NCBI GenBank assembly: GCA_973895155.1
Contig: OZ316892.1
Location: forward strand, 5,230,510-5,294,509
DNA length: 64,000 nt
From: Marsupella aquatica
Lineage: Eukaryota > Plantae > Marchantiophyta
Direction of reading: 5' to 3'
Shown one piece after another: positions 6,182-46,246 of this stretch (positions are counted from its first letter, which is position 1; each line of letters starts with the position of its first letter). The notes below the pieces were generated by a model. It saw only the letters and a list, made by a program, of their open reading frames with translations, was not told where the DNA came from and searched no databases. The translations under genes and the position numbers were made by a program.

Positions 6182-7274
6182 GGCCTCACTATATGACTGC
6201 CTCCCCATCGCCTGCGACATTTTTAGGCCTTGGACCCCCTGAAATGTAAGAAAAAAAAAATTCAACCCCTATAAAAATTTGGTTAGAAAGACCCTAATGT
6301 TCTTATAAATCTCAAAATTGAATTTAAAAGACCCTAAATTGTTCTTCTGCAAATTCTTAAGTCTTCCCTTCAAATCAATAAAACGACCCTATCTTTCGTC
6401 GCACGTGATGTGCCATTTTTGTGGAAGTGAAACCCCCGAGACTTTATGTTGGCTGGGTATTGACTTTCCAAGAGGAATTAATGCTAGCACAAAATATATG
6501 TAAATGTTGTGAAGAGATTTCTAGCAAGTCAAACACAATGTCAAACTCAAACACAACACCCAGACGTTGTGTTTAAAGAAAAACATATTTTTAGTCAAGA
6601 GACCATTTTTTCCCCATTTTTTAACACAACACCCTATCTTTGTGTTTGGGGGAAGATGGTAGCCGCCTTCAGATCCGGGAAAAAGACTTTGAGATGTGAT
6701 TTGGGGAATCTTTTTTGACAAATCTGGGAAAAATCCAGGAATTTAAAGACTTTGAGAATTCCAATTGAAAAACTTTGAATATTAATAAAATATAAAGTAT
6801 CTATTTCTCTAAACTTTAAAACTTTAAAAAACCATATTTTTCATGTCAATCAGTTGTGTTTGGACTTTATGATGCAAAGGTTGCTATTTCATGTCTAGCT
6901 CCAATTTCAATGTGCAAGGCGTGTGTTATTGAACACGACCACAACAAGTGTATGGCCGGGATCACTCAAAAAATGCCTCAGTAACTACATCCCAAAGCTT
7001 AAATAGTTTCTTGTCTTGCCTGGACAAACTTTTCTAATCTTTCTTTCTTTGACATATATCTTTTCCTCATCTTTACATCTTTTTCCAACCTTGCCATCTT
7101 TTCTCTCCTTGACATATTTTTCTCACCTTGACTTCTTTTTTCACTTTGCCATTTTTTTCTCTCATTGACATTTTTTCCTCACCTCAACATCTCTTCTCAC
7201 CTCAACATTTTTTGTGCAATGCAGACGAATGGGGCTAATACTACTATAAAACCAATTGTCCTTATATATTGAGT

Positions 7275-7690
7275 GATATATAAACCCCAGGTCACCGGCA
7301 GCCAGAAGGGTTTAGAGCAGCAGAATGAGAAGTGATATATACCTGAAGTGACCAGCAGCAAGAAAGGCTTAGAGTAGCAGAATGAGAAGTGATATATACC
7401 TGAAGTCACCAGCAGCAAGAAGGGTTTAGAGTAGCAGAACGAGAGGTAACACGTACCAAAAGTCACCAGTAGCAAGAAGTGTTCAGAGTAGCAAAATGAG
7501 AGGTGACACATGCTAGAAGTCACCAGCAGCCAGAAGGGTTTAGAGTAGCAGAATGAGAAGTGATATATGCCTAAAGTCACCAGCAGCCAAAAGGGTTTAG
7601 AGTAGCAGATGAGAAGTGACATATGCTCGAAGTCACCAGCAGCCAGAGTAGCAAAATGAGAACTGATATAAACACTAAATCACAGGCAGC
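7275..7690. repeat. minisatellite, about 57-bp unit, about 7 copies
   Basis: The unit GAAGTCACCAGCAGCAAGAAGGGTTTAGAGTAGCAGAATGAGAAGTGATATATACCT recurs. It appears as a 19-aa periodicity in the spurious ORF 7197-7622. Confidence 0.9.
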
Positions 7691-7699
7691 TAGAAAGGA

Positions 7700-16510: not shown

Positions 16511-17189
16511 TTCAATCGTGTGAAAGGTATCGAAAAGCTCCGAGTACGGCTCTGTCTGTGTTCAATTCATTCATATGCTACGACTGCACAGAAAGTTGAC
16601 ACCCTTAACTGAACACTGAATCTCCTGACGAACAAACCAAGTACCAGCTACAGTAGTATTTTCGTGAGCCCTGAATCCCTGATGGACAAATGAGGTACCG
16701 GCTACAGTAGTACGTTCGTGAGAATGATGTCCATGAGCTCAGCGGGTTTGCTAGAAATGAGAGAGAGCGAGAGACCGCACGGATTCGCCATTTCCCCACG
16801 ATCAGATTTTGAAGGTACCGCATTCCATTACGGGAGCTGCAAACATAATAATGCAAACCTCACTTCCATGACTGACTCTCACCACTAGCAACTACAGTAT
16901 GACTGTAGAGAGCGGTGCTGCGGCATCATTCTCCCAAGATGTGGGGATTTCTTCCTGCCTTCCTGAAGAAGCGACGACCATGACAGACACGGCAATCCAC
17001 GTTCATCATGGCGAACGTGGTAGAGGGCATTGTCTGATTGTCGAGCTTCAGCTTCCATCTCTCGTACCCAAGTGAACTGAGTACAGTGAGTGACGGCTCC
17101 ATAACTCCAAACGGCTCGTGTGTCGACGTTTCTTGCACTGATCAAGGATTGGGGCCTTCAATGCGGTACTCGCAACAATTGTTCATAAT

Positions 17190-19210
17190 TCGAAGGTTCA
17201 AGGGTCGAGATTTCTTACATGAATCGAGTTTTTGATTTTGCACCCTGTGGATATCTGTGTCATAAATCAAGGGCTCGGGTGTCGAGATTTCTTACGTTTT
17301 TTGAGTATTCGAGTTACTGTTTCAATACTGTCTTTCAAGAAAGGGTCATCATTCTAGGGCTCGAGTGTCTGAGATTTCTTACACTAATCAAGTTTTCAAT
17401 ACTTGCTAGAATTGATCAAGATTCAAAATAACACATATACAATATATCACTCCATACTATGATAGATCATCTCGTTATTTTCTTTGAATCAATGAATGCA
17501 CATTGTCTATTATCACATATTTATTTCATGTATGATTAGGGACATGGAGATATTTTGATGTCTGATTACAGACAGGGAGATTAAAGGGCTGAGTGTCTGA
17601 GATTTCCTACGCTAATCAAGTGTTGCAATAATACTTTCAAATACTTGCAAGAAGTGTTCAGGGTTCAAGGGGCCCAGTGTTTGAGATTTCTTACAATCAT
17701 CAAGTATCACAATTACCGTTTCAATACTTGCAAGAAGTGGTCATAACTCAAAGGCTCAGTATCTGAGATTGCTTACACTAATCAAGTAGTGCAATGATAC
17801 TTTCAATACTTGCAAGAAGTGTTCACGATTCAAGGGCTTGTGTGTCCGGGACTTCTTCCAGTGATCAAGTATTGCAGTAATGCTTTCTATGCTTACAAGA
17901 AGGGGTCATAATTCAAGGGCTCGAGTGTCTAAGATTTGTTAGACTGATCAAGTATTACAATGACCGTTTCAATCTTGCAAGTAGGGGTCATGATTCAAGG
18001 GCTCTAGTGGCTGAGATTTCTTACACTAATCCAGTATTGCAATAATACTTTCAATACTTGGAAGAAGCGTTCAAGATTCAAGGTTGGTTCTGAAGACTGG
18101 GATGGACACATATAAACCATAGTGTACAGAATGGGAGCAAAGTACTCGGGACATTTTGTCAATAGTGTGACGGGAGTATAGTTTAGTGTTTGGTCAATCA
18201 GGGTTTTGCAATTCCATCCCAGAACCATGTCAAACCTCTGTATCTATCTGGGATTTTCATTACTCAAGATTTCTTACACTGATAAAAAAACTGTACCCCT
18301 AAAGTCAGGCTTGGCCACTGTGGCTTGGTTTCCCATTTCTTCCTCCTAAAAGAAGTAAAAACAAAATGTATTGCATTCTTCCATACTTGCAAGAAGTGTT
18401 CAGTTTTAAGGGCTGGAGAGTCCATATTTCTTACACTTTATTCAAGTATTGCACCCTTCAATACTTGCAAAAAGTGAGTTCAAAATTGAAGGGCTTGAGT
18501 GCTCATATTTCTTACTTCTTCCACTCCAATCAAGAGCTGCACCCTTCATTAGTTGCAAAAAGTGTGCTCTAAATTCAATGCAACAGTAACTAATTCTACC
18601 GTACAAAGGTACAAGTTTGAATGCATATTCTTGCACTAAAACGCTATTGATATTCCATACTTGTTGCGTTCAAAAATTCAAGGGCTCGAGTGTCGAGATT
18701 TATTACAATCTAAGCAATTATGCTACCCTTCATTACTTGGAAGAAGTGTGTTCTTTAATTAATGTAGGAGTAGCTAATGCTACTGTATCTATGCGCAAGT
18801 TTAAATGCATATCTTTGCACTAATCAAATGCTAGAGATATGAGACCCGGGTGATATGAGCCAGGTTCATTAGTTAGAGATATGTCCAGTTTGAGTGCACG
18901 TTCTTGCACTAATCAATACTAGATATGAGCCAAATTTATGATTAGAGATATGTCAAGTTTCAATGCATATTCTTGCAATAATCAAGTGCACGAGATATGA
19001 GCCAAGTTTATTCGTTAGAGGTTTGCAGTTTAAATGCATTAGTCACGACAGTGTTGAACGGATACTTGCAAGAAAAGGCTCAAAAACCAATGTAGTAGTA
19101 ACTAATGCTACTATACAAATGTGCGTAAGGGTATGTGCTGGGTATGAGCCAACTTTATTAGGTACAGATATGTCAAATTTAAATTGCTTATTCTTGCACT
19201 AAAAGCACTA
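17190..19210. repeat. degenerate satellite-like array (about 83-bp unit, grading into a related about 70-bp unit)
   Basis: TTCAAGGGCTCGAGTGTCTGAGATTTCTTACACTAATCAAGTATTGCAAT...TTCAATACTTGCAAGAAG repeats with about 82-84 bp spacing at 17580-18080. ATATGAGCC...TTCTTGCACTAATCAA units occupy 18780-19200. Confidence 0.8.
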
Positions 19211-19643: not shown

Positions 19644-19980
19644 GAGGGTTATGCTCAATAGACCCCCTCCAGGAGAAACTTTACTTGATCAGCCCCCTCC
19701 AAACTTTTTTGCCCCAATCAGCGCCCTCATTATGGCCCGTACCCTTTGCTCCCGTGTAAGGCAGTTTCCCCCGTGTAAAGGCCTTACTGCACAGTTGGGA
19801 GCCATGTCACCACGCAGGGTTGCCTCCCGTAGTCGACCACGCGACTCCGCTGCATTCGGGCCGCAACTACGCGGTTTTCCCCCCCTCGCACTATGGTCCC
19901 TTATGAGCGTGAATACATCGTGGTTTATGTCTTCAACAAAATTTCTGTTTAGGGCGCACATTGTCGGGGCGCACATTGTC
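19644..19980 (+). repeat. MULE left TIR
   Basis: Reverse complement of 41420-41755 with about 7 differences by manual comparison. Confidence 0.96.
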
Positions 19981-22320
19981 AACCGCGACCGTCATTTGTC
20001 GAGGGTGGGATCGATAGTTCTTCGTTGTTTTACGGAGGGGACTGCGTCTTTGTGGTTCATGGAGGTGAGGCGTCGTTTGCTGCTGGCGGCTGGCGATTCT
20101 GGGGAGGTTCATTGATCGATGCGAAAGGAGAGCGCGAGGTCTGAGTCTCGGCCCACTGCTAGGATCGAGTAGCGTTCATTCACCCCATTCTGCGAGATTT
20201 CTTTCACATTGTAGCGCCTGCCTAATTGTTGGTGGGTTTTGGATTGGTGAGAGTGTCTCCCTTTGTTGTTCTTCACTAAGGTATGGAGGATTGTCCGCCC
20301 GCCAATGTAGCCCAAGAAACTGTTTAATCATGCATATCATAATCTCTCTTGCATTATCTTCGCCTTCTCGTCGTAAGTTCTTCTGCATTGTTCAGATTTG
20401 CATTAGATTAGTTCAGATCATTTGCAGAGTCTCCTTGTTCTTGTGCGTTTTTGTCACCATGAAATCCATGTACTCCGGTTCTGCTGCATAGTTGCCTGCG
20501 AGCTTTAGGCAAAGTGGACTTCACGACAGAGATTAATCTCCATCCCACTTGAACCCGCCTGTATTTGTTTCTTGGTCGAAGCATTAGGTTGATTTCAGCT
20601 CTTTTTGCCTAAGTATGAGTTATGCTGCCCTGTTTGAATACCAAGACATCTGTGTGTTCTAGTTTTGCTTATATCTGAACCTGTTCTCTTCTTGGTTTGG
20701 TCCAGCTATCATGAGAATCGCCTCTTCTTGTGTTCTTGTTGCAAACATTGATGGGCTGTTTTGTTTTCGTGAGAGTATCTTCCTTTGTGCTTCTTCCAAA
20801 GGAGATTGTCCGTCAATGTCGCCCAACATACTGTTTCCTGCCTTTTTTGCATCATGTCGATGCGCAGAATACCATTACCTGAATGTCTCTTGCATTCTGC
20901 AATTTTTTAGCCTTAGCACCATCACATCCATGTCTTTCGGTTCTGGCACTGTATAGTTTCAATATTACGTGGATAATAGTGCAGGGACTGTTTCCATATG
21001 GCAGTTGAATCCTATCCATTAACGAGTGCAAAGCAGTACAGGACAAAGGTCAAGGTCATAGGCTGGAGAGGTTGGGTTTGATTTTGAGCCCAACCAAGGT
21101 TCAAGCTCAGTTTCCATGGCACCACGAATGAGAAAAATTCAGGTAGCAGAGGAAGAGAATCACTTCTGACATCGTGTTGATGGTGAAGGCAAGCATATGT
21201 TTGTCTGCATAGCTGGTGCTCACAAGCCTCGGTCATTCTCTTCCTTTGCTGGTTTCCAAACCCACATGGACGTCACACACAAATTGGAGTTACCACCTGC
21301 ATTATTGGAGGCGGGCCAACCTTGGTTGTATTCAAAATCCATCTTCTCCACTCGGATTGCCAAGAAACATAAGGGCCATGGGCCAAATGCAAGGAAGGAC
21401 AACAATGAGGCCTCTTGGAACCGACTTCGATCTACTATGCGACTTCGATGGAGACAGACAAAGTTGCGAAAAAAGACAATGCTAAAGAAGAAGTATGGTG
21501 TTGTTGCAGATCAGCCGCTTGTTCCTACAAAATCATTGCTCATTCGTGTCATCAAGCAAGTGTACATACGTGGAGGGCAGCCGAATGGTTGGTCATCCTT
21601 GTTGGATGACAATGTGTATGAGATGTTGCAAGACTCTGTGTCAGCTGCTGCAATTACTCCTATTCTATGTCACTGGGTTGCTTCAATCCAAGAATTGCCG
21701 GTACTTCTACCTAGAGATCGCAAGTTGCAGGCACTTCAACTAGATTGTCGTGTTCTGCCATGCATTTTCCCCCGGCCGGATGTGGAGGTGCAACCTCTTG
21801 AGCTGATGCAGTTTGAAACTATTCGAGATGCTCTCATTTCAAATGCCTTGAATTACTTGGCTCAGAAAAGAGCGCTTTTACAGTGGAAGCATGGCCCCAA
21901 AGAAGTCAACTTTGAAGCTGCATACCAAGATTACATGGAGTGGAAAGAAGAGCAAAAGCCTGTCAGCATAGCCACAGCCACTAACAATTTGCTGCAGGAA
22001 TACAAAGGTCGGGGCATGACCACTGAAGCTGCACGAATAGAGGTATGACCTTCTTATTTTACTTCTTGCAATCTTTGCTTATTGTTTGTACATTCCATTC
22101 TCATCATATTGTCTGAACCATGTGCAGGCTGGACTAAATGAAGAGTGGGAGGACACGTCTGACGATAGCGATTATGAGCCTGGGCCTGAGAAGTGGGGTC
22201 TGTTGCTAAATGATGCTGATCAACAGCCAGATGAGGCAAACACAGTATCTGAACCTGTCCTCAGTACTTCGATCAGTTGAGGACCCGCCTCTTGTACAAG
22301 ATCCTATTGAGGTTCCTTCT

Positions 22321-22550
22321 CATGTTCAGGATGATGAAGACAATGATCATCAGAATCCTTCTCATGTTGAGGATTTAGACCATCTTATTGACCATCCTGT
22401 TCAGGATGATGAAGACAATAATCATCAGAATCCTTCTCATGTTGAGGATTTAGACCATCTTATTGACCATCCTGTTCATGATCCTATTCAGGACCCCATT
22501 GACCATCCTATTCAGGATCCCATTGACAATCCTATTCAGGATGTTCATGA
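22321..22550 (+). repeat. coding tandem repeats (75 bp x2 plus short 12/24-bp units)
   Basis: VQDDEDNxHQNPSHVEDLDHLIDHP occurs twice, followed by DPIQ/DPID units. Confidence 0.85.
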
Positions 22551-23358
22551 ACAAGGACTCAACTTTCACAACAGTGTCACTTGGTTTCAAGCCTCCAAAA
22601 TATTCTTTACGCCTATGGGGAGGGAGAGGACGGCGACCCCCTCCAGGTCAGTCTTTGTTTCTTTGCTTCAATTACTTTTGGAATTTCTTTGCAAATTGTG
22701 AATACATGAGCCTCATTGTATTCGGATGCTCCTTGTGTTCATTGCAGGAAGGAGTAGTATCAGAGACTATCTCGGAGTTCGTAGCACCACCAACCCCTAC
22801 ACCAAAGACTCTACTCCCAGACTTCATAGCGCCAGTCGCAGCAACAGCACCAGCCCCTGTACCGTGTAGATTAGTCTCAGAGTCCTTACCACCACTTGCA
22901 CCAGCACCACCAGCCATTGCACCACAAATTGTACTATTAGAGTCGGTACCAGTAGCAGCAGCACGACCACCACGACCAGCCCCTGCACCACACATTGTAA
23001 GTCTCTAAAGTGCAAACTTGGAAGTCATTCAATTGCAATCTAGTCTGAATACTTAAACCCCAATGTCTTTTCACTCCCCTAAGCATTCATTTCATATATT
23101 CTAGGGACAAAGACGAAGGGGAAGGGGTATACCACTGGAGTCCCCATCCCCAGTACAAAAAGCAGCACCATCCCCTCCAATTTCAACAAACCCTTTCCAG
23201 GTTTGCCTTTGTGTTTTTTGTAAAAACATATGTTTGCAATGCTTTGCAATGTCTGAATACAGCTGCCTCATTGTCTTTGCCGTGCACTGCATTTCTTCAT
23301 TCTAGAGATGGAGCGAAAGGGCAAGTGGAGGGGTTGTAGCAGTGGAATCACCAGCACC

Positions 23359-23855
23359 CACTACAACATATTTGACACTTTTGCGAAGGTATTTTTGTCG
23401 ACGCTCTTGTATTTCCGATGGGCGGCGCTTTGCATATTTTGCGAATCAACCCGCATCGCAATTTGCGATTCTATCCCTATCGCAAATATAATAGCTGAAG
23501 CGCATTATATCGCTAATAAATTGCGAAGTAAGTGGTTTTGCAATTTTTACCGAAATGCGTCGAATGGAAAGGCACCTTCCGAAGACGGAAAAATCGCTCG
23601 CCGACTCCGAAACTAACTCATGTAAATATTTGCGAAGAATATTGGATTGAAAATGTTTTGCGATAGTAGTTGTTTGACAAGTTTAAGAATGTCGGAGGAT
23701 GGAAGATTTGCGAAACGCTGAAAATATGAAATTTGTGATTGATTTTGCATCACAAGTTTGCGAAGAGTGTAGTATGGAAATATTGAGAAACGAGAAGCTT
23801 CATATAAATTGCGAGTCCGGTGAGAGTTTGTGAGCTTCGCAAATTGTTCGCAAAC
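23359..23855. repeat. CACTA left TIR and subterminal TTGCGA(A) repeats
   Basis: About a dozen TTGCGA/TCGCAA copies in both orientations. Confidence 0.88.
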
Positions 23856-24319
23856 TAAAAATTAAGGTTATTGTGAGGTGAGACAATGAAGAGGGTGGAT
23901 GGTCCAATATATGGATGGGGCAGGAGGGAAGAGGAAGGGAGGATGGAGGGAGGTACAATGAAGGATGGAAAAGGGAGGGAGTACAATGGAAGAGGAAGGA
24001 GGGAGGAGAAAGAGGAAGGGAGGAGGAGGGACAAACGTACCACGGAGGAGGGAAACACGAGGGTGAGAATGAAAATTATGGAATAAGTAGGAAATAAAGT
24101 TATATTGAGCAACAGAGGTTAGATAGAAAGTTGCATGTAAAATTCACAAGTGATCACAATAAAACAATACAATACATATGTCATGAGTATGACTCATTCA
24201 AAAGTGAATGGCAAATATAAATATAGACAATCCTTTTTTTTATATCACCAAACATGAACAAATCAAATATAACATGAACAAATGTCTAGGCTGGACCCAA
24301 GTGCATATAAATATGTCCC

Positions 24320-27300
24320 TCACACTTGGTCCTCATCGGCCTCAAGGTCATCTAGGTCTGATGCAATAACATCTGGCTTCTCAGAAACAATGGAACGAGA
24401 ACGTGGCACATAGGTGATGACAATTGACCACTCGGTGTCTAAGGGGTATGGAATGTAGAAACATTGCTCCAAGTGTGATGGGAAAGCAAATGGTTCTAAC
24501 GTTTGCCAATGAGATGCTTGAACACTAGTGGCACTTGTCTTCAACCGTGTAAACCCACTCTCATCTTGAAGTACAGTGCAATTTTGACCAACAAGGTTCA
24601 CTTTGAACCACTTGCACTTGAAGACATATTCCTCAAACTTTGAATGGTTGTCATATGATACCACCAAGATCTCCTCTATCTTCCCATAGTGTGGCACAAC
24701 ATCTCTAACAATGTTCCTGTCATGGCGGCTGCTTCTGGAGTCTTGAGAAAATTCCCCTTGAACTCCACAATCAAAAGTACGACCCCTCTTCTCATCAAGG
24801 GAAGAAACCCTAAAATTAACAAAACCCACAAATTTTTATTGCACTATAAAAGATACCATTAATGTAATAATCATCAAAATATGACACCCATCCCTAAATA
24901 GCCAAAACCCACATGGCCTATGGCATAAATATAGAAGCCAACATTACAGTTATGGATGTCATTAATGATAATAGAAATTTTTTAAACAATAGAAATAACT
25001 AATCAAAATAAGGTCTACATGAATTAATAGAGGAAGAAAGGTTAGGTACTAGTGGACCTGAAGTGTCTCCCTTGTGTCCACATAGCCGTCTTGGATGTCA
25101 CCACTCTCAAAGGGCCATGAACAATGGTCCGAACGTCATCTGTGATGGTAAGAAAGTGGGACACATCTCCTCCTTGTGTCACCATGTCATCCAACTCAAG
25201 CAACTTTTGCTTCATATACTCATGCATCTTAGGAAAAATTCTTGCTCTTTGACTTGTTCTCTTGGCATTATCATAAAACTCTCTCCATTTCTCCATGATA
25301 TTACTATTACTCAACATAAATGTTGTCAATTGTGACCACTCTGTTGATGTCAACATGCGTGTTTTTGTACTCAACATAAATGTTGTCAATTGTGACCACT
25401 CTGTTGATGTCAACATGCGTGTTTTTGTGACACCTGTTAAACGGTCCTCCTCCTCTTCTCTTTCCTCCATCCAAGTACGTGGACAAGTAGGATCAATGGT
25501 GGCCAAGATGTTACTACAATAAAACATACTCTCTGCTGCCAAGTATCCTGTAGCTATGCTTCCCTCCACCCGTGCACGGTTACGTACATAAGCCTTCAAC
25601 ACCGCCATGTAACGCTCAAGCCAATACATCCATCTACAATGCACTAGACCTGCAATGGCAAGCTCCCGCACAAGATGCACAAGTAAATGAACCTGACAAT
25701 CAAAGAAGGAAGGAGGAAGGGCTTTCTCCAACTTGCATACCACCTCAGCTGCCAATACCTCCATCCCAGGGATCTCTTCTACATATATCTCCTTTGAGCA
25801 TATCCATCTCAACAAACGACCCAATGACCAGATGGCATCTTGCACTTCTTCACTCCCTATACCTATAATTGCCACTGGCAATATATGCTGCAATAGGCGA
25901 TGATAGTCATGTGTCTTCAGATATCGTGGCCACTTGTGATTGTCCTCCATCCCAAAAGCTTTTCGAAGGTTGGCACCATAGCCTGTAGGAAACCGCATCT
26001 CTCCTATACGGTTCCGAAATTCACGTCTTTGGCCAACACTCAACACCCAAGGAGCAGAAGGACGATTCTCCACACCTGTGATACGATCAATTGTCACCCA
26101 AACATCTGGATGCATTTCCATCTCCTCGCATGCCTCCCTAAAATTAGTGTCCTTCTCCCCATAAAAATGCTTTATCAAAGCCTTCCCCACATTTCCCTCA
26201 ATGTGCATGGGGTCTAAAAGATGGCAGATCTTCAACTCAGACCAATAGGGCAAAGTGGCTAGTATACTCCACCTGGTCAAACCTGTCCTATCAAAGGTGA
26301 AGGAATCATTTGGGTCTGCCACCCTATTAGCTAGTGACTTCCAATGTGCAAAACTTGTTGCATCAGGAATTTCACGCTCATCACCAAATGGCATGTCAAA
26401 GGAGGAGAATAGAAGTGGGTCAAACCTCATCTCATGCCCCATGGGAAGAAACTTTGTATGCCCAATATAAACAATCTTTCTAATCCATGAACAATATGTG
26501 GCCATGTCCTCTAAGCTTGGGCCACAAGTAGAGCAAGCTTTGTACCCCTGAGTTTGCAATCCAGAGACAAAACCAAACCCTGCTTACATAGAAGAAATCA
26601 AACCATGCAAACTTTATGTTAGGGTTGTCACATGAGAAACATCAATAGGAACTACACATTATTGAAGGGTTGCAAATGGCATGGAAGTCATCTTACCAGG
26701 ATAGTCATGCATTGTCCAACAAATGATCCCTCTCAATTGAAAGACACGTGGAAAACCTCCTGTAATTTTCCTGCCATCATATGCCCACACTCCATTCCAT
26801 AATTTTTGAAGTTCTCCAACCAATAGTGCCAAGTAAGTGTCAAAGTTCTTCACCTTTTTTGGACCTGGGATAATCAAAGACAATAAAAGGAACCCCTTCT
26901 TCATGGATAGCCATGGTGGGAGGTTATAATTCATGACAACCACAGGCCAAACTGATGTAGGTTGCCCCTTTCCTCCAAGTGAATGAGGGCTAACTCCATC
27001 AGATGCCAATCCTAGCCTCACATGGCGAGGATCATGTGCAAAGTCTGGCCATGTTGCCTCAATATGTTTGTGAGCAGGGGAGTCAACTGGCAACCGCATG
27101 ACACCAGACTCTAATCGATGAGTCTTATGCCATACCATCAACTCTGCCAAGTCAGAACACCGATACATGTGCAACAACCGAGGAATGATGGGAAACCAAC
27201 GAACAGCCTTCCTTGGCACCTTCTTTGTTAGCATGTTGGGGTCATAGCGAGGCTCATCACATGTTGTACATTGTGTCATGTTTGCATTGGCCTCATGAAA

Positions 27301-29199
27301 TAACATGCAATCATTCACACATGCATGAACAATATGATATTCCATGCCAATAGATGAGAGAACACTCTTTGCCTCCTTCCAAGTTGCTGGCAACACATTC
27401 TCAGTGGGCAACATAAGGTCATGGCAAAGTGCAAACATATCAGATAACAAGGCATTGCTTGCCTTGTGTTTGGCCTGTAGGTTCATCAACCCCAAGATGG
27501 CTGAAAGACGACTCAAACGAGCACCCTCATAGATAGGTGTTCGGGCATGTTCCTCTGCTTCTTCCCATTGGCATTGTCCCTCAGGGGTATGCCTTGGGCG
27601 TGGATCATTGGGGGGCACCTGCCCTTCATTGGGAAGATCATCACCAAGGTTGTCGGCACCAAACCAATCAACCATAAAGTCATCCATGGCTCTATCCTGG
27701 TCATCAGTTACTTGTTCATCCGTCCGAGGTACCTCTTCATCAGGGTTACTGCTTCCACTAGCACTTGATGAGGAGTGTGACTCTGATCCATGTCCTTCTT
27801 CTGGCATACCCATTTCTCGATATGTTGCTCTCAATCTCCGTGGTAACATATTTGGAGAGGGTCGCACATTCTAAAAACAAAGCAAACAATTGAAAGTTAT
27901 ATTGCAAAGAGAACACACACAAAAATGGGCTAGGGGTGTGCAAAAATGTAATAATATTGGTTGTGGTGCAAATACAAAATGTGGCCAAAGGCCATATGTA
28001 GTGCCCTTTCATATGCAACATACCACCTATGACCCTTAACTTAACCCTAATCCCACTCATAGTGAGTAAATAACTCATCCCCTGAGTTAATGGTCCTTGT
28101 TGCTACAACTAGGCAATGGTCATGATGATATGTCTGGCCATAAGGTGCTGGCGGAGGACCCTCAATGAAAACCCACTCACAATTTTGCCTACGCTTAGGG
28201 CGAGTCCCCACGGTACTGTTTATGAAACCAGCAATATTCCCAGTCCGTATGGGGTCCCCATCTATGACACGCTGCTCACTATACCTTCTAGTGTTTCCAT
28301 CAAAAGTATCCATGTCCAATGCATAAGTCTTCCACTCAGGGTGTTGTGCAAGGATCATGTTCCAATGTCTTCTCTTGTAGATGGGTCCACCATAAGGAAA
28401 CAAAGTAGGCCCCTCTCGGCCGCGTCCACCTCTACCACTCTCGGCGTCCACAATGATGTCCTCACAGGCAAAAACTCCATAGCCATGTCTATCCCCAAGT
28501 GTGGAAGGTTTGATAACCCAACGTCTACCCCAAACCTCTACCTCCGCACCGTAGGAAAGCTGTTGTGGCAAACCAAGAGTCTCAGGATCCCAGTCCTTGA
28601 TGATAGGGACACATCTGCCAGTGAACTCACAATCACCCCACCGACCCGTAACCACTGCCTTGTACAAATCAGTATCCCCTCGGGCCCGCCTCTTGGAACG
28701 CTTTCTCCCTCTTGGGACAATAGCCTCAACCCCAACTTCCCTAGGACTGGTGGGCCTTGCCGCTAGACCCAAGGCTTTTGAGAATGCATTGCCTATAGCA
28801 TCTAGAACACCTTGTGATGGGACATAGGGTGCTTGTGCCGCAGGTCTAGGCCTATTGGATACCTATTCCACCGAAACCAAAACAAACAAAAGTAGGTGTG
28901 AAATTGCAAACCTTCAACCATTGAGTAATGGGAATAGGGTAGGAAAACTAAGGCATAACACTTACCATATGAGATGAAGAAGCCCCTGCCGTATGACATC
29001 CACAACGCCCATATCTCTCAATATGTTGGGCACATATGTAAGATTTTTGGGAAACCTGACCCACACATCTGGAACATTCACAAAGTTGACGGGGTGGACC
29101 GCGAGGAGGAGGTGCGGTCGTGTGATGTTGAGGTGGAGGTGGTGTATCTTCATCAGAGGAGGACGAGTCTGTGGTGGAGATTTCAGAAGATGAAGACAT
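24320..29199 (-). CDS. CACTA transposase (TnpD/Tnp2-like), predicted 1139 aa; exons 29199-28966, 27870-26697, 26579-25058, 24809-24320
   Basis: CECSRC...H N-terminal motif; HACVNDC...CTTC; RLGLASDG; SVWPVV...YNLPP; DYPG|F...GYKACSTC; LDPMHIEGN; LKTHDYH; HLLVHL; RWMYWLER; VEGSI; HYGKIEEI; FKCKWF; EPFAFP. Splice phases 0/1/2 are consistent and no stops were found. Confidence 0.93.
25308..25427 (-). repeat. perfect in-frame 60-bp tandem duplication in the transposase
   Basis: TKTRMLTSTEWSQLTTFMLS is encoded twice. Confidence 0.95.
28047..29199 (-). CDS. SET-domain protein (putative lysine methyltransferase), predicted 349 aa; exons 29199-28966 and 28862-28047
   Basis: SET motifs in order: IKPS...GYGVFA, PYGG, YAL, IDG...GNIAGFINS, NCEW, VATRTINSGDELFTHY. 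Basic NLS-like RGRKRSKRRAR. A 103-bp GT-AG intron (28965-28863) joins the exons in frame. Confidence 0.85.
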
Positions 29200-30497
29200 A
29201 TCCCCTGTAACAAGATATAATTAAAATGGGCATGTTATGACCAAAACATACCACAAAATGATATAAATCAAAGTTCCCAAATAATGATGACAAGAAACCC
29301 AAACCAAAATGACCATAGCAATAAAAAAGGTACCTTTATGAGACCCGGGCTCAGCAGTGCCAATAGCTCTTGTGGCTCTAAGATAATTAATGAACCCAAT
29401 CTGAAGTATGAGGGAAAAGCTGCAACCATTCCATGTATATGTAAGCACAATAATCTGGACCAGACAAGAACAAAAAACCCTATATACATGTCCCCTTTAT
29501 ACATAGTGGCAACCAAAAGTGTTAAGTACATGAAAGGAACACTTTAGCCGATCATGCAATGTTTACCTTTCAGATGCCCGGGCTCTCACAATGCATATGC
29601 ATTAGTATCAAATCATCAAAAAGTGCCGCACCCTGCAAGCTATCATATATTCCCCTCCTTTGTTAGCAAAACCCATGCCAATCCCCTTTTGATTCATAAA
29701 CCCAATGAACCTCTCTTAAACCCAAAAGGCTGCAATATAAATCTCATGAAACCTTGCTTTGTCTTATCCAAACCTTCAACCCCAAACCGCATCCTACCTA
29801 TTAAACCTAAATCTGACTTACACACAAACCCAAACCTTTCTTCAACCCTAGAGACCTTTCTATTTAAAAACCCCAAACCCTAAAACCCTAAACCCAAACC
29901 TTACTTATTTCTTGTAAACCAAATCCCACACCTTTATTATTTCTTCTAAACTAATGTAAACCCAAACCTTAGCCTAAACCAACACCATACATAACCCATT
30001 AACCTGAAATCTGCCTAACCCTTCAAACCCGCCTTCAACTATTATCTAACACCCAAAACATGGCCAAAAAGCATTCCAAATATGAGTATAGAGGGGTCCA
30101 CTTCACCTTTGAAAAAAACCCTTTCAAATGAAACCAACATTCCCCCAGGACGAGTTGCCAATGTCTTGCGAAGCCGCTTCCTTCGCAAATACCATCACAA
30201 ATTAGAATTGAGGTTTGCGAAGTTGCTGCTTTCGCAAGACCTTCAGAAAAACAGAGCCCGAGAGCATTTCTGCGAGAGAGCGAAGGTGTTGCGAAGCCTT
30301 TCACGTCGCAATGGTTTCGCAAAATTGAGAAACTATATGCGAAACAAGAAGAATCGCAACTTGCGAAACGGGTTGCTTCGCAAGTCTTTCCCGCTTGTAC
30401 TTTTGCACTCGGCCGCGGTGTACTCAGCGGCATTTGACAAATTTCAAGCGTAGGGAGGGAGAAGGGAGCTCGCGCGCGCTCGGGGGGTGGCTTGGCT

Positions 30498-32466
30498 ATG
30501 GATTCCAGTGGAGCAAATGGAGGTGATAGGGCAGGGGTGAGTGAGAGTGGCAATGGGAATGAAGGCAATGGGGAGCAGGAGAGGAATCGATGGACCGATT
30601 TGATGGCTGAGCACCTCAATGCAGCACAGTTGAGCCACTTAGATTTGACTACACCAGCAGGGATTGCTTCTTTGAGTGCAATCCTTGGGCAAGCCTTGCA
30701 AACGGGAGTAGATGCAGGGAACATTGCAAGGGAGGAGGAGCAAAGGAGTGCAGCTCAACAGAAGGCAAGAGAGAAGAAGCGTAAGAAGGAGGAGAGGGCC
30801 AAGGCAGGAGTAGTCTCACCTGTTGCCCTAGAAAAGAAGAGGAGGAGAGAGGAACGAGATGAGATAAGAGCACAGCGGGAGGAGCAGCAAAAGAAGGAGG
30901 AAGAGAGGAAGAAGCTGCCTATGATTGCCTTGATCGAAGGCATTCCTACTGAACTGGCCTACACCGGGGCAAAGAGCACTATCAGGCTTATGGTGCGCTC
31001 CAATTTTGCACGAGGAGTTGAGTGGGGGAAACTCAGCAAGGCAAACCAGAAGAAAGTAATGAGTCAAATCAAAGATTCATTTCGAAATGGAGCAGAGATT
31101 GATGAACAGTGGCTTGCAGATAGAATTTCCAATTCAATGTCTCAAGCACGGTACCATGATAGGAAGAAGGTAAGGGCCTACCTGGCAAACTTGGAGGAGT
31201 ACAGAAATGTGAGGAGGCCACTGCAATTCACTGAGGACGTGTGGAATGCCTTTTACAAAGTGGAGGTGCAGATGAGAGCTGCCAGGAACCTTCTCTTCTG
31301 GAAGGAGATGGAAGCCAAGGCACAGAAGGCCGGGAAGTCCGACCGAAAGCTCAAGGCAATGGCTGAGAAAGTGTCTCACATGCAGCACATTGTGGATGAA
31401 GTGGGTGCACCACCCCAAAAATTCATCCTTGCAGCTGAGCGAGTCAGCAAACGGCCCAAGACCACGCACAAGATGGGCCAAGGTGGACTTCCCGGCCTCA
31501 AAGCACACTTTGTGAGTGGGCCCTCTCCTCTCCTCCCTTGCTTCTGTTTCCTTGCTTTCAATTGCTATCCAAACCTGCAATGCCCCCCTGCATACCTCTT
31601 GTTTCTTTCTTACGGCCTGCCTTGTACTTTAGGTCACCCTGACACATTGCGTGCCTTAGAGATTTCTCGGAATTGTTTAAAAACAGAGTTTGCGAAGCTT
31701 TTGCGATGTGGGTTGCTTCGCAAATGTTTCGCAAAGTCTATCATGGCATTTTTTAAAGTTGTAAATGCGAAGCTATTGCGAAATAACTCGCTTCGCAAAC
31801 TACTTCGCAAACAGCCAATTTATTTGAATTTGCGAAGTGGGGAGTTTCGCAAGTGTGTATTATGTTTTAAAAAAACCGCTAAGGGTTATTGAGCCCAATT
31901 TTGTGTTAGGGGCACCCTATTAGCACCTCCATGCATTTTTCTTGGGTTTATAGCATATTAACCTCGATCTATTTTGGTTTTGGAATGTTTGGTTGTGGTA
32001 GTATAAGAGGTACCGCAGGAAGATAACAGCAAAAGAGATGGAGATAGGAGCTGCGCATGGAGCCAAACATCTCTTTGACTTGGTTGACGCAGAGTTGGCG
32101 ACTGTAAGTGCATGTATCCCCTTCAGTTTTTCCCACCCAATCCACTTATCTTTTCATTCCGTAAACCTAAACCAATTTGGCGTTGTGCTGCGCAAACAGG
32201 ATGATGAGGATGCCATCGATACCAGCAGCACCGATGAGAACAATGAGGGGACCACGACAAAGGGGCCCAAGGTAGGAGGGAGTAGTGGATCTGGACCAGT
32301 AGGAGGAGTTTCCCAGCAGGAGGGGGAGGAAGAGGATGAGGATGAGGACGAGGAGGAACCAGATGTGGAGGAGCAGCCAGCACCACCTCCTGTGCCACGT
32401 CCGGATCTTCGCAAGAGGGACAAGGGGAAGAGGCCGGCGACAAGGAGTAGGAGGACCCCATTCTAG
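30498..32466 (+). CDS. CACTA second gene (TnpA/ORF2-like DNA-binding protein); exons 30498-31511, 32002-32103, 32200-32466
   Basis: Open frame with a coiled-coil/basic region, W...F...W...RP..FTEDVW and THKMGQGG motifs reminiscent of CACTA ORF2 proteins, and an acidic tail. Phase-0 GT-AG introns. It is divergent from the transposase. Confidence 0.72.
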
Positions 32467-32714
32467 AGCTTGGTGGTGTAGTGCCTATGGGATGCCCATT
32501 TACTTAGTGTAGTATATAGTTTTGATATGGGTAGTCTTATAGGGACCTAGCTTGTCATATGACACCCATCTAGGGTTTAGGGTTTAGGAAACCCTAATTT
32601 TTGTGTACCTATCAATTTTCTATAAAGCAATTTTGATTCAGACCTCATTCTCCGTGTTGGACGACAAGACCCCAACCATAATTCAAAACTCTAAATCTAA
32701 ACCCTAGCCTCAAG

Positions 32715-33149
32715 ACATCTTGCGAAACCTATGCGAACAACCCAATTCGCATATTTACCATATTGAAGGTATCGCAAACATTATGCAAACCACATACGTT
32801 CACAAAAATGCGAAGCCATGTTCATGGCATAACTACCATTAACTTAATATCGCAAACCGATTACCAAACTTCTGGGATTGCAAATATTTAACTGCTTGAT
32901 TATTATCGCAAGCCTCTCGCGACGCCCACGGAGTCGCTTAAATGTGAGTCCTTTGCGATTCTATTAGTGTCGCAAGTTGCAAAGGCGTTGCGAAGGTCTT
33001 GCGAAAGACCGGATGCGAACCTTTGGGCTTCGCAGTTTGCGATTCTATTGCGATGTGCGATACTTCGCAAAGGCGAGTTTTGTTTTTTGATTTCCTTTGT
33101 TGTTTGCGATGCTTTCAAGTTCGCAAAAGGTGTGGGTAGTGTTGTAGTG
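32715..33149. repeat. CACTA right subterminal repeats and TIR
   Basis: Dense TTGCGA/TCGCAA copies ending in TGTTGTAGTG. Confidence 0.88.
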
Positions 33150-35120
33150 ACCAGCCCTCGCACCACGGATTGTAAGTCTCAGAAGTGCTTACTTGGAAGT
33201 CGTGCAATTGCAATCTAGCCTTCATACTTCAACCCCAATGTCTTTTCACTCCCAGGTTTGCCTTTGTGTTTTTGGTAAAAACATTTGTTTGCAATGCTTT
33301 GCAATGTCTGAATACATCTGCCTCATTGTCTTTGGTGTGCACTGCAATGTCTTCATTCTAGAGACAAAGCAGAAGGGCTCTTGGAGGGGTTGTAGCAGTG
33401 GAATCAGCACCAGCCCTCGCACCACAGATTGTAAGTCTCAAACGCGCTTACTTGGAAGTTTGAATACATCACCCTAATTGTCTTCTACGTGCACTGCAAT
33501 TTCTTCATTCTAGCCCGTGCACGGGAAAGAAATTTGATATAGGTCAGCCTGGTTTGCCTTCCTGTACAAGGCCACATTCCTTTCTATTCATATTACTTTG
33601 CAGGGGTTAAATACACAACCCTTGATGTATTCAAGTCAGTTAATGATATTCTCCATTGTAGAGAGGAAGTAGAAGGGGAAGGAGTGTATCAGCGGTGCCC
33701 CCAAAACCAGCAGCAGCACCGGCACCAACAAGCAACCCCTCCCAGGTACGTCTTCATGTACCAGGCTAATTTCCTTATCAAACTGCTTTGCAGGGAGTGA
33801 ATACACAACCCTCACTGTCTTCTATGTCAATTAATAATTTTGTTCATTGTAGGGAGGAAGACAAAGGGGAAGGGATGTGTCAGCAATGTCCTCAGCACCA
33901 GTGGCACTAGCAATCCCAGTACCAGCAACCAACCCCTCCAAGGTACGCCTTTGTGTCTTAGGCCACATAATTGAATTCCTTCTCATCAGCAGCGTCCAAT
34001 TGTTGAGTAATGTGAATACTTCTTTGTCAATTATGTCTTTTGATGTTGCTTTGGATTGTAGGAAGGGCAACAACGGGAAAAAGCAAGCAAAAGGCGAAAA
34101 GGAAAGGGAAATTTGGTGGAGCAATCCCTTGCACCTGCCCCAACCCCTATCCCAACAAATGAACACTCAGCCCCTGCCCCTGTAACAACACCAACACATG
34201 CACCTGCCGATATCCCTGGACCACCACTAGCACATGCCCCTACACCACGACCAGTAGAAGCACCAGCCCCTATACCAGTGCCAACACCAGGCCCTGCACC
34301 GGCTACGAACTCCTCACAGGTATGCCTAAGGGTGCAGCAGCAAAATTCCTCTGCTTCATTGTGGAATGTGAATACCTCTTTGTCCATGTATTCTAATGTC
34401 TTTGTGGGTTGTAGGTACCACAAGGAGGAGTTGCTTTGTCCTTAGTACCTGTTCCTGTCTCAAGGAAGAGGAAGGAGGCCTCTAAATCAAGAAAGGGTAT
34501 GAGCCAGGCATTGCAGGTTGTTCCTCTATTGGCAGTCGACCCCAAAACAAAAGTTGTGTTTTTGCACCCCGAAGATGATGACTTAGCAACATCAGAAGTT
34601 GAAGACAGAGCACTGAGAGGCAAGCAAAAGCGAAGTAAAAGCGCGACAAGTAGAGGGGAGGGGCAAGGGAGAGGAAGAGGAGCACCTTCTACTCGACCAA
34701 CTCCCTTGCATGAAATCCCGCTAGGTGATGGTGACAATGTAGACACATTTGGGCCATCACAACTTTTGCATGACTCCCAAATGACTGCTTCACAAGATAC
34801 ATTCAGGGAGGTTATTGACCAACTCCCGCACCCTTCCCAATATGCTGACTGAGTGTGGATGCCCTTCCTGTGTGGTACTAAGCCATTTTTGTGGTAGCTT
34901 CAGTGGTCTTTAGATGCAATGTAGCTTGAGGTAGCTTCAGATACAATGTAGCTTCATTGGAAGGCAAGGAGGCCCATGATACATCTACACTGCAAGGTCA
35001 CAACTCGACTTGCAACTTGTACTGGAAACATTTATGAATAAAAAGCAAGTTGCATTCACTATGTTCTGATGTATAAAAGTTATTCATTCTGCTGGATACT
35101 ACCTTCAATCAGCACCTTCA

Positions 35121-35607
35121 GTTTTGGAAGACATTGTCCATATTGTCTTCGCACCACACTTAGCCATTTTTCCAACGACATGATATTCTGCTTCAAGAAG
35201 CCATTTGAGCGGGGGTAAATGGTGGATGTTGTGGGTTTGGAAGACATTGTCCATATTGTCTTCGCACCACACAGCCATTTTTCCAACGACACGATATTCT
35301 GCTTCAAGAAGCCATTTGAGCGGGGGTAAATGGTGGATGTTGTGGGTTTGGAAGACATTGTCCATATTGTCTTCGCACCACAACCATTTTTCCAACGACA
35401 CGATATTCTACTTCAAGAAGCCATTTGAGCGGGGGTAAATGGTGGATGTTGTGGGTTTTGGAAGACATTGTCCATATTGTCTTCGCACCACACTTAGCCA
35501 TTTTGCCAACGGTTTTGGAAGACATTGTCCATATTGTCTTCGCACCACACTTAGCCATTTTGCCAACGACACGATATTCTACTTCAAGAAGCCATTTGAG
35601 CGGGGGT
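35121..35607. repeat. tandem array, about 111-bp unit, 4 full copies plus 1 half copy
   Basis: GGAAGACATTGTCCATATTGTCTTCGCACCAC starts at about 35126, 35239, 35350, 35460 and 35517. Confidence 0.93.
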
Positions 35608-35801
35608 ACGTAAATGGCCAACACTAGTGGTTTCACACAAGATGCACGTGAGAACTGCAAAAAAGTTTCAAAATTTGTATAACATCTCAAAATTGTTGGA
35701 GTACAATGTTGTTGTAGACTTCAATATCTGCAACTGAAGCAAAATTGCAATTGCTACTTCCTGTGAGCTATTATTTGAACTTGTTACCACTGTGGTGTAA
35801 G

Positions 35802-37032: not shown

Positions 37033-40000
37033 CTAGTAAGGTTCAGTAATATCAACATGATATTGTGACCCAAATCCTTGACAGTGTATTGCAGCCTCAT
37101 TGGCCAATTCCATGCACCTATCAATGAAAGCTTGTGGCAATTGTTGTTCACTATTTGGGAGAAGGGGCTGAGGCACAATGCTCTGGATTGGTCCTGTGTC
37201 TGTTGTTGGTGCTGTCAATTCAATACTATATTCAGTCTGTAGTAGTTGGTCTTCCCAAGGAAAGGGTGACACAGGTGGGTGCTCCAAATTGACTGCATCA
37301 CCATTATCCACCTGCATATGAAGGCAACTTTAAAATTTGTCCCTAGCATGAGACCACACATGCATGAAGCCCACAAGTAATGATATATACTTGTAAGAAG
37401 ACTGTTAATGTTGGAATCCTTACTCTTGCCGGATCTATTGGCGTCACACTATGGACTTTATCACAAGATCTTTGGTTATGTCCAACCTGCCCACACTTAC
37501 TGCACCTGCACTTCCCAGTGTTAGGCCCCGCTTTCTTTGCCCTCGATTGAACTTGAACAATTGGAAGTCCAGCAATAGTGTTTGCTGTTGAAAAGGGTTC
37601 CACCCTATTTGGATCATCATCTAGTGGATATCTCAAGAATAGTTGTCCAAGGGAGTCAATCACTTATTCTTCGCCTTCTCCAAGAGCCCTAGGTGGATGC
37701 CTCCCTCCACGACCCTGTTCGATGCGGACCATTCTATGTCTGCCCCTTTTCACAGCAGCCACAGGAGCAACACAATTTGGACTTGGCATTAAGTCTGATA
37801 CAATAAAGCTAGGTAAAACATTGTCATACAAAGCCCTAATTGAAGCAGTCCGCCAACATTTGTGAAAATGAGCAGAATTTTTTTTGCCTTCCTGGTCATC
37901 CCAAGCCATTATATGCTCACATGGCCACACCCTTTCTTGCAGCTCCCAACAAGTGCAACATTTCTTTGGTGACAGTGACACTAGATACTCCTCACTTTGG
38001 GATGTAGTTTGAACCTTGGCTGTGGACGCACCATCATCAAACACCTGAGCATATGAAAACTTGGATATAATTACAAAACTATTCAAATAAAGAATACATT
38101 CATACTAGTGTATTTTAATTGAACACAGAGCTATTAAGAAGACATTGATGTTACAGTATATACAGAACACGTAGCTAGTAATGCATACACAAGACCAGGC
38201 ATGAAGATTACCTGCCATTGACCAAACGTCTTGAGATTCTTGTTGTACCTGACCAGGGCTGGAATAGTGAGTACTTCCTGTCTCGCCAACGCAACTGCTT
38301 TCTTTTCTTTAAACTTTTGCTGAACATATACCCACATGCGCTCCATCAACTTGCAAGGAGCAAATTTGCGCAAGGGGAGTAAGCCTGAATTTGCTTGCTC
38401 AGCAGGGTTGCTTGTAACCTTTGCCATGCGGGGAAGTGGAAAGGCATGCCTGGCATAAATTTTTGCATCAAAACTTCTGATGTAGTCTACAGCATTTGCA
38501 TTCTCATGTGCCTTGACGGACTCTGCCAGTCGCTTCAAACATGCTTCAAATCTGATACAGGTTCACAGGGAAAACATTGATGTTAATGTATACAATCATG
38601 TCATACACACAGAAAACACTTGTGTGAGTGATATGTACTTCACATTCTGTATTCGAGGAGAGGTAATATTACTGTATTGAACACTGAGTATGCGCTATAT
38701 ACATAAGAAGACAAATGTATGTAAAATCAAAGCAATGAAGGTTTTTGGACTTACTGTCTTTCATCGTTGGCATATATGCATCCTGTAAAAATATCTGCTG
38801 CTGCTTTGCCATGTCTGTTCTTGACATTAGCTCTCAGGTGGTTTGCACATGCTGCATGTATCTTACCTGGCCATACGTAACTCACAACGGCAAGTAGACC
38901 TTTTTGTCGGTCTGATATGAGTGGCATGTGAGGCGATTCAATGCCATACAATGATCTATCTACCAATTCCAGAAACCAGATCCAATTATCTGTGTTCTCA
39001 ATTGGAGCTACTGCGTAACATAGAATCAATCCTTGGCCATTTCCATCCAAACATGTAGCTAAGAATAGTTGAGTGGGGTACTTCCTGTTCTTTGTATGAC
39101 ATGCATCAAGAGAGATGAGAGGTTGAATGTAGGTACATGCTTTTCGTATAGCTGATGGGCAAATGAAAGCTCGACAGAAAACGTTGGAGTTTTCCATTGG
39201 GGACCAGACTGCCACTGCACCAGGGTCAGTCTCTCTCACCCTGGCAATTAATTCCGAAATCATTTGAAACGTGTCTTCCTGCCCACCAAGGTGCAGATCC
39301 CGTACATAGTCTTTTGCTCGCCACATTTGGTGGTAAGTGCTGTTCTTTTTATAATCCCCTTGAAATCCGTAGAGTAGTTCTTTGACCGGCACCTTCAAAT
39401 TTCTACACACTCTAGGCGCCAGTGTGTCTCCTAACCACACTGCCTTTTGTGTTGGGCCCCTCCACTCTCCACTTGTGTTTAGATACTGGACAATTGTGTT
39501 TCAGCTCACACACAGTAATGATATGAGCCCCGCTGTGAGCTTGCCAGTGACATCCGACCCTGAATGGGCAGTAGGCTGAACAATCTAAACCATCTTCATC
39601 GTACTGTGGTGGGGGCCTAAACCTAGAAAACTCCCCGCATACTCCTGTGGTAGAAATCTTCCTGACTTTTACCGTGCCAGGGGCATGTGACCCAGGTAGC
39701 CACACATTGCTATGCTGCACTACTGTGTGTGGTTTCTTTGCCATTGTTGTGTTCCTCTGGAGACAGTTTGGATCCAGAGGTCCAAGGGGTGCACGAACCT
39801 CCTATTGCAATCCACACAGAACATATTCATGTTATTGTATATGGAAACACAGAAGATAGTGGTGTCATTGTATACAAAATACACACCACAATGGGGATGT
39901 TTATATGAAACATAGAAGACACTCATGACGTCGTATACAAAACATTGATGGTAAAATGCAAAGAAGACATTCCTGTTGAGGTATACCTGTGGAGCATTTG

Positions 40001-41419: not shown

Positions 41420-41755
41420 GACAATGTGCGCCCCGACAATGTGCGCCCTAAACAGAAATTTTGTTGAAGACATAAACCACGATGTATTCACGCTCATAAG
41501 GGACCATAGTGCGAGGGGGGGAAAATCGCGTAGTTGCGGCCCGACTGCAGCGGAGTCGCGTGGTCGACTACGGGAGGCAACCCTGCGTGGTGGCATGGCT
41601 CCCAACTGTGCAGTAAGGCCTTTACATGGGGGAAACTGCCTTACACGGGAGCAAAGGGTACGGGCCATAATGAGGGGGCTGATTGGGGCAAAAAAGTTTG
41701 GAGGGGCTGATCAAGTAAAGTTTCTCCTGGAGGGGGTCTATTGAGCATATCCCTC
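41420..41755 (-). repeat. MULE right TIR
   Basis: Inverted copy of 19644-19980. The inner end carries GACAATGTGCGCC(C/T)C units, three here versus two on the left. Confidence 0.96.
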
Positions 41756-45490: not shown

Positions 45491-46246
45491 TCACCAACTG
45501 CGACTGGCAGAGTTGGATTGGGAGGTGGATCTGCTCCTAGATCGGTTAAGATTGGGAAAGTTATTAGGATTACGGTTGTCCATCTGGGAAATCTCTTCCA
45601 AATGCGGGAGGAGGTCTAAAAGTTGTTGATCTCTCATGTCATCAATAAAAGAGCTAATAGGAATGGCATTAGCTGGCTGCAACATGTAGGAGTGAGGGCT
45701 ATTATCAATGATGATGACCTTAGAGAGATCCCGGCCCAGCAAGGTGAGGTCCTTCACCAAGCCTCCTTCAATTGGCCTACAAGACTCACGATATCTTCTG
45801 AACCTGATAGCATTATGTTTGTCCAAAATATCCAGCAATGGGTCTGCATACTTTCTCAAGCTTGCTGTGAAGATGACTACCTCAAATACCTTGGCCATTG
45901 CCTCTAAGAACCTATCCACCCCTGGCCGTTTTATCACATATACACTGCAAGGCTTTCCCTCAACCTCAACCGTGATGTTGAAGTCATAGTGGGGGACCAC
46001 CTTGAATGATGAATGAACTAAAGTTTCATCTAGGTCAAGTACCAGTGTCTTCCGCCCATCATGGTCTTGGCTCTGAGGGGGCAGGCGAGCATATTCCTCA
46101 GGGCCAGGGGGCTGGCCCTGACCTTGACCCACTTGCTGGCACTCACAATTGCTACTCGGGTCGCATCGACCACCACTATTTTGTTGTTGTAAGTTCACCA
46201 GTTCTGAATCACACTCAGCTACCTTATTCACTTGAAAGCATTGCAT
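45491..46246 (-). CDS. CTD small phosphatase-like (NIF/FCP1, HAD superfamily) protein
   Basis: KTLVLDLDETLVHS (DxDxT), KRPGVDRFL, VIFTAS..KYADPLLD.LD, RYRESC, KDL..LGRDL, IIIDNSP, NAIPISSF. The catalytic domain is intronless; the true start is uncertain. Confidence 0.93.
   Translation of the reverse strand: MQCFQVNKVAECDSELVNLQQQNSGGRCDPSSNCECQQVGQGQGQPPGPEEYARLPPQSQDHDGRKTLVLDLDETLVHSSFKVVPHYDFNITVEVEGKPCSVYVIKRPGVDRFLEAMAKVFEVVIFTASLRKYADPLLDILDKHNAIRFRRYRESCRPIEGGLVKDLTLLGRDLSKVIIIDNSPHSYMLQPANAIPISSFIDDMRDQQLLDLLPHLEEISQMDNRNPNNFPNLNRSRSRSTSQSNSASRSW

Follow-up and report, generated by a model that had tools for sequence, protein, structure and literature searches.

A CACTA transposon whose first coding exon is predicted to be shared by a SET-domain protein and the transposase

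We describe a complete CACTA transposon in which one first exon is probably shared by a SET-domain protein and the transposase, as judged from open reading frames, conserved splice sites and selection. This exon (exon 1; 29199-28966, minus strand; 234 nt, 78 codons, CECSRC...HIERYG) ends at a phase-0 donor, ATG/GTAAGT (slashes mark splice junctions), and is followed by two phase-0 acceptors. Acceptor 1, GAATAG/GTA at 28862, gives an in-frame join and a 349-aa product with a Pfam SET domain at its end; acceptor 2, TTTTTAG/AAT at 27870, joins exon 1 to exons 27870-26697, 26579-25058 and 24809-24320 and gives a 1139-aa transposase with no internal stop. A preliminary description had listed this exon, its donor, both acceptors and both product lengths, all of which we reproduced, and its placing of the SET exon inside the transposase's predicted first intron is borne out by the layout. 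Its central proposal, that the one exon joins either partner, is confirmed as a layout of the DNA, with open joins, conserved sites and phases and signs of selection, and is probable as a pattern of splicing.

Results

An intact transposon within a Mutator-like element

The CACTA element occupies positions 23359-33149 (9791 bp) of the window, i.e., the 64-kb stretch of DNA analysed. Its terminal inverted repeats open with CACTACAACA at 23359 (plus strand) and 33149 (minus strand), and a 3-bp target-site duplication, ACC, flanks both ends. Four features of a CACTA/En-Spm element, as defined in the available text of PMC4158355, are present: CACTA-starting ends, a 3-bp duplication, an intact TnpD-type transposase and subterminal motifs. 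In related loci, a CACTACAA end lies 3.2-3.5 kb upstream of exon 1, with flanks that differ between loci.

The CACTA element is inserted into a Mutator-like element (19644-41755). A 287-nt inverted repeat (19694-19980 and 41420-41706; 98% identity) has a MULE transposase domain between its arms (38754-39500), and a plus-strand gene of the Mutator-like element (21170-23005), which has no Pfam match, resumes past 33150. Elsewhere, the window holds the stop-interrupted coding region of a Copia-type LTR retrotransposon (1487-5642, plus strand; gag, protease, integrase, RT), a NIF (NLI-interacting-factor-like) phosphatase domain that may belong to a host gene (45494-46318, minus strand; E 9e-58), and diverged tandem arrays at 7227-7698, 17183-19202 and 35120-35658, with periods of about 57, 83 and 111 nt.

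One donor and two open joins

Exon 1 encodes a Ser/acidic head, a Pro-rich linker and a C40-x-C42-x2-C45...C56-x2-H59 module, with its own acceptor, ACAG, 5 bases upstream of the ATG. The intron to acceptor 1 (28863-28965, minus strand) is 103 nt long, compared to 101-118 nt in relatives; it has GT..AG ends, 38% GC and 43% T, and the pyrimidine tract at acceptor 1 is weak. In the transposase form, the three introns measure 1095, 117 and 248 nt and are all GT..AG. Between the SET stop and acceptor 2 lies a T-rich spacer of 176 nt (27871-28046, minus strand), predicted to act both as the 3' untranslated region of the SET form and as the 3' end of transposase intron 1. The spacer contains no AATAAA; it is unalignable between families and measures 146 and 219 nt in the other two.

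Upstream of exon 1, two non-coding leader exons are predicted from splice sites and a short motif that the window shares with loci L048 and L026: leader exon A (29567-29632, minus strand), with donor AAG/GTA at 29566, and leader exon B (29334-29419, minus strand), with its donor at 29333. Both carry a similar 3' motif (GCA.TG...GAGCCCGGG...AAG/GTA), kept in three families in which the surrounding introns are not; the pair is possibly a duplicated regulatory element. Rfam had no match for this motif, and the two matches that it did return were at chance level only.

Purifying selection is seen on exon 1, on the SET exon and at the start of the transposase exon. Across residues 33-78 of exon 1, dN/dS is 0.10-0.18 (against 11 loci). 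Similarity of exon 1 to the transposase-associated domain PF13963 is weak: this domain was the best Pfam match in three of five full exons (best E 0.0098), it matched two of 10 full exons at E ~0.05 (14 bits, cut-off 27.7), where an unrelated family reached a comparable E, and it matched none of nine exon 1 cores. An Atlas search with exon 1 gave no match.

The layout recurs in relatives

Searching with the SET exon recovered 42 proteins, the named relatives being from Sphagnum, Calypogeia and, distantly, Riccia, while a scan with exon 1 recovered 60 metagenome loci. Nearly all of these loci form one, peat-moss-type family, with an exon 1 near that of Sphagnum model P0004, and L026 represents another. 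As one family accounts for most of the loci, they amount to three independent families (the window's included), not 60. Wherever contigs reach, the gene order is the same: exon 1, short intron, SET, short spacer, transposase. The preliminary description had named conservation of both acceptors in homologous elements as a check on its model, and both are found again, with phase unchanged, in two further families. Of 60 related loci fetched, all 49 in which the donor's position could be found have GT there. At acceptor 2, all nine loci that reach the transposase exon have AG, the L026 equivalent being TTCATAG/AATATG. Among the 30 loci long enough to show acceptor 1, it is AG in 24, AA in five and absent in one. 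The acceptor ahead of exon 1 shows similar loss, reading AA in five of the 23 listed, so degeneration of individual copies may well account for the pattern at acceptor 1.

Public gene models from Calypogeia fissa and several Sphagnum species, which are themselves predictions, start with exon 1 and join the SET exon at the same junction. Spliced forms were absent from the 60 metagenome loci, and relatives of the SET exon were absent from viral contigs. Reads of five sequencing runs (X1-X5) extend through the introns, and no joint among those listed falls at either predicted junction, a result that speaks neither for nor against the two joins. Two alignment joints, 28831-28960 and 27873-28045, were considered as splices and rejected, as they reflect diverged DNA copies; the second belongs to a diverged sister contig (runs X3 and X4) that matches as far as the SET stop and then again from the TAG of acceptor 2. 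In a distant SET model from Riccia sorocarpa (P0042), a stretch near the start, DIKKYGRH...AGS, can be aligned to the last part of exon 1 but lacks the cysteines. Between the window element and the peat-moss-type family, dS is only about 0.8-1.2, while, of the named SET relatives, the closest comes from a liverwort; for a liverwort host, such a low dS would suggest horizontal transfer.

Where the SET reading frame would begin

The SET exon (28047-28862, minus strand; 271 codons plus stop) is a predicted alternative last exon. It is directly preceded by an in-frame TAG, it contains no Met until residue 169, past the GYG motif (residues 127-129), and no near-cognate start occurs before codon 31. 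Residues 65-271 nonetheless show dN/dS of 0.22-0.24 (dN 0.17-0.19, dS 0.75-0.84), calculated against the five of 11 loci that retain a SET frame of >200 codons, many related copies carrying stops. The SET exon is thus, on these alignments, under purifying selection, and because it is so constrained without an early Met or near-cognate start, it would have to obtain its start by splicing. Exon 1 is the predicted source of that start, since the donor at 28965 is the sole strong one conserved in all three families within the aligned stretch: among conserved GT sites from 29230 to 27871, scored against a donor consensus, only 28965 reaches 7-8 of 9 in every family, and the other phase-0 site scores 5.

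A different arrangement, which we regard as unlikely, would reserve exon 1 for the transposase and make SET a nested gene without it, translated from a leader spliced to acceptor 1 or from an internal start. Some relatives fit such a gene: the SET exon has a Met at residue 4 in the peat-moss-type family and at residue 6 in L026, public models include 263-aa proteins that begin at this early Met and others that begin at an internal one, and peat-moss-type copies have ATG CAG at the end of leader exon B. However, the early Met is missing from the window copy, from the sister contig (loose end at 28831) and from Calypogeia model P0001, and no ATG is present in leader exon B of the Marsupella copy. 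Acceptor 1, moreover, is in phase 0 in all three families, behind introns of 103, ~117 and 111 nt. With a SET exon devoid of its own start, the window family offers the better test of a shared exon.

Where the transposase exon would begin

Exon 2 of the transposase (26697-27870, minus strand) begins at acceptor 2 (NVRPSPNMLPRRLRATYREMGM...) and carries Transposase_21, the end of which lies in exon 3 (25058-26579, minus strand) together with DUF4218; exon 4 (24320-24809, minus strand) holds DUF4216 and the stop. The Pfam E values are 7e-39, 2e-32 and 7e-08 for Transposase_21, DUF4218 and DUF4216, respectively, and the 1139-aa product has LASDG, HDYPG, CxxC and DPMH, motifs with a catalytic role. 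Exon 3 contains a perfect in-frame 60-nt tandem duplication (25308-25428) that adds 20 residues; it may be private to the window copy, since a contig in run X4 lacks it.

With exon 1 confined to the SET product, the transposase would instead start at Met8 of exon 2, driven by a promoter of its own or reached from a leader exon spliced past both exon 1 and SET. Because Met8 is conserved, a separate start is possible, and the strongest conservation does begin there: against eight peat-moss-type loci, identity is 40-43/48 bases over codons 8-23. Two conserved leader exons lie upstream, and annotated models join exon 1 to SET, with no exon 1-transposase protein among 642 and a single candidate from a second search that proved to be the SET form, both searches being weak. 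But identity already steps up at the AG, from 16-17/57 bases before the TAG to 11-14/21 over codons 1-7. Within these codons, 3-4 of the seven residues are identical (dN 0.37-0.48), and an N-x-R-P-S at the exon start is kept with third positions changed. The conserved codons ahead of Met8 argue that the exon starts at acceptor 2; in addition, the diverged sister contig takes up its match again at the TAG of this acceptor, phase 0 holds in all families, the spacer is short and not conserved, and exon 1 weakly matches PF13963. A start at Met8 therefore seems improbable.

A fused or decaying SET sequence is unlikely

A single SETMAR-like fusion protein, in which exon 1 and most of SET would be spliced from an internal donor to the transposase, is highly improbable. 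Sphagnum models P0028 and P0072 do join SET to the transposase exon, and GTGAGT occurs at 28630 and 28180, but the junctions of the two models differ and both lose the ELFTHY motif. Furthermore, none of the 10 donors scoring at least 6 between the acceptors lies in phase 0 relative to the SET frame, L026 lacks the 28180 site, and all three families retain the SET stop codon. We also considered Met codons that lie out of frame ahead of weak GT sites in SET (28465, 28279), and dismissed them as a side effect of the SET coding sequence.

That the SET exon is unexpressed or decaying intron cargo, as the stops in many copies and the loss of the long frame from all but five of 11 loci would allow, is just as hard to credit given the between-family dN/dS, the near-invariant motif residues in 38 aligned proteins and the intact frame here.

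A predicted methyltransferase

The SET exon matches PF00856 at 27 bits (cut-off 22.4). Its structure model is of moderate quality (pLDDT 61); a model of the complete exon 1-SET protein of Calypogeia (P0001; pLDDT 45) was uninformative. By Foldseek, the best match of the SET model is SET8 (E 3.4e-05), and all matches listed are SET proteins; the structure comparisons also included 3bo5, a SETMAR structure. VIA-align against EZH2 gave Z 8.8 and rmsd 2.7 over 114 aligned residues, and SET8, MLL1, G9a and EZH2 are tied at 13-26% identity, with no subfamily ahead. A PDB sequence search with the SET protein gave no match. In a tree built from 27 of 38 rows (11 short rows were left out), the window sequence groups with P0007, then with Calypogeia P0001, P0002 and P0009, and its deep placement is unsure.

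GxG, YxG, Asn and a terminal catalytic Tyr are the motifs of a SET domain, with the NH motif formed by a His after the Asn. Across the 38 rows, G127, G129 and Y157 are each kept in 37 and G159 in all 38; N215 is kept in 33 (with four gaps) and Y268 in 30 (with seven gaps). The predicted protein thus resembles the SET lysine methyltransferases SET8, MLL1, EZH2 and G9a in fold and in these motifs. It differs from them in its low identity, in position 216, where the His expected of the NH motif is Ser in 28/38 rows and never His, and in having no post-SET region, as it ends 3 residues past the Tyr. On balance, we think it fairly likely that the SET protein is an active SAM-dependent lysine methyltransferase. 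A basic run in its linker, RGRKRSKRRAR, suggests that the Cys/His-SET protein may be nuclear.

A divergent gene and motif clusters

A third gene (30498-32466, plus strand) runs divergently from the SET-transposase unit, with a first exon of 338 codons (30498-31511) and later exons placed by eye. Relatives 55-65% identical to it stand in the same place in 35 of the 39 loci with >2 kb upstream; neither Pfam nor PDB gave a match. It is a candidate TnpA-like regulator.

TCGCAA clusters mark the left subterminal region (23381-23853; 13 sites), the stretch between the divergent genes (30166-30383; 10 sites), the predicted first intron of the divergent gene (31690-31852; nine sites) and the right subterminal region (32720-33126; 13 sites). 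Inside the element there are 46 sites (4.7/kb), compared to 12 outside it (0.22/kb); the window total of 58 compares to 23.8 +/- 5.3 in shuffled sequence and was reached in none of 100 shuffles. In the available text of bioRxiv 10.64898/2026.08.24.746577, Arabidopsis TnpA-Spm1 is described as an activator of its elements that binds CCVTCGCAAA in clusters; the clusters here have the TCGCAA(A) core in common with that target, whereas the full CCVTCGCAAA-type 10-mer occurs once in the window. The same text has TnpA working via host DNA glycosylases, and the word methyltransferase is absent from it.

The TCGCAA core, together with the divergent gene, points to a separate TnpA-like protein as the one that would do the targeting. 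The preliminary description had instead cast exon 1 as a targeting module common to methyltransferase and transposase; given the weak PF13963 similarity, this part of its model finds no support here, and the divergent gene with its clusters is the better fit to a TnpA-type binder. Exon 1 may serve both products as a contact module.

Discussion

The shared-exon reading implies the following model. Transcription would begin at one promoter near 29.6-30.4 kb and proceed through two leader exons and exon 1, after which an acceptor is chosen. Use of the near acceptor would produce the 349-aa Cys/His-SET protein, with polyadenylation in the 176-nt spacer, and use of the far acceptor from the same donor would produce the 1139-aa transposase. 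Because a transcript can use one acceptor or the other, the two products would be mutually exclusive per transcript, such that acceptor choice would set their ratio. The simplest history would be capture of the SET exon into the transposase's first intron, where it would borrow the promoter, start codon and N-terminal module already in place.

As to function, a tentative proposal is that the Cys/His-SET protein is nuclear and serves the element, in the simplest case placing marks on the element's chromatin or on the proteins it encodes, recruited by the divergent-gene product on the TCGCAA clusters. More speculative still is a scheme in which a TnpA-like protein sits on the TCGCAA-bearing ends and the shared promoter, the exon 1-SET protein brings a histone methyltransferase into the same complex, and acceptor choice toggles the element between chromatin writing and jumping. 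Were this true, bryophyte CACTA elements (with exon 1 here called zinc-binding) would write their own histone marks from one splice switch.

If both joins are used, one gene would yield both the enzyme for mobility and an enzyme predicted to methylate proteins, and a new enzyme would have been gained by an exon dropped into transposase intron 1, reusing its promoter, start and N-terminal module. Beyond splicing, this land-plant element family keeps SET under selection in mosses and liverworts, and the intact copy, defined ends, candidate recruiter and motif make the idea of a transposon that writes its own histone marks testable.

Transposon-borne SET genes and En/Spm alternative splicing are each known, and their combination was not found in the literature searched: the search, which lay outside Repbase Reports, subscription journals and preprint supplements, returned no bryophyte CACTA element with SET and no shared first exon. 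SETMAR, a primate SET-mariner fusion, is a domesticated host gene that makes one protein. The present unit is like SETMAR in having SET and transposase in one transcription unit; it is unlike SETMAR in that SET ends at a conserved stop, the products are predicted to be alternatives, and the whole lies in a mobile element with intact ends.

SET-carrying DNA transposons are described, in the available text of PMC12730594 and bioRxiv 10.1101/2025.02.11.637652, as Phytophthora HarbingerS and MuDR, Helitrons/Helentrons and the red-algal Plavaka PAG2, the last with a DNA methylase-SET protein; none of the carriers described there is from land plants. In each, SET is an accessory of a DNA transposon, as here, and Plavaka belongs to the EnSpm lineage. 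Compared by these descriptions, their SET sequences are accessory genes, none of them given as a transposase-intron exon sharing exon 1, and for the oomycete, red-algal and Helitron genes a role is offered there only as a suggestion.

A close parallel in organization is En/Spm, which is known from maize. Arabidopsis EN/SPM3 and EN/SPM7 are reported to make TnpD and TnpA by alternative splicing of one gene (in the available text of PMC13547354 and bioRxiv 10.64898/2026.08.24.746577), and the split-gene families of Arabidopsis are arranged head to tail (same preprint), whereas the TnpA candidate here lies on the opposite strand, head to head with the transposase unit. The element shares with En/Spm its CACTA ends, 3-bp duplication, TnpD-type transposase, end motif clusters and a predicted second product of the transposase unit. 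It is unlike En/Spm in what that product would be: a SET enzyme with a shared coding exon, rather than TnpA. The En/Spm analogy drawn in the preliminary description thus holds for the splicing logic and fails for the identity of the second product.
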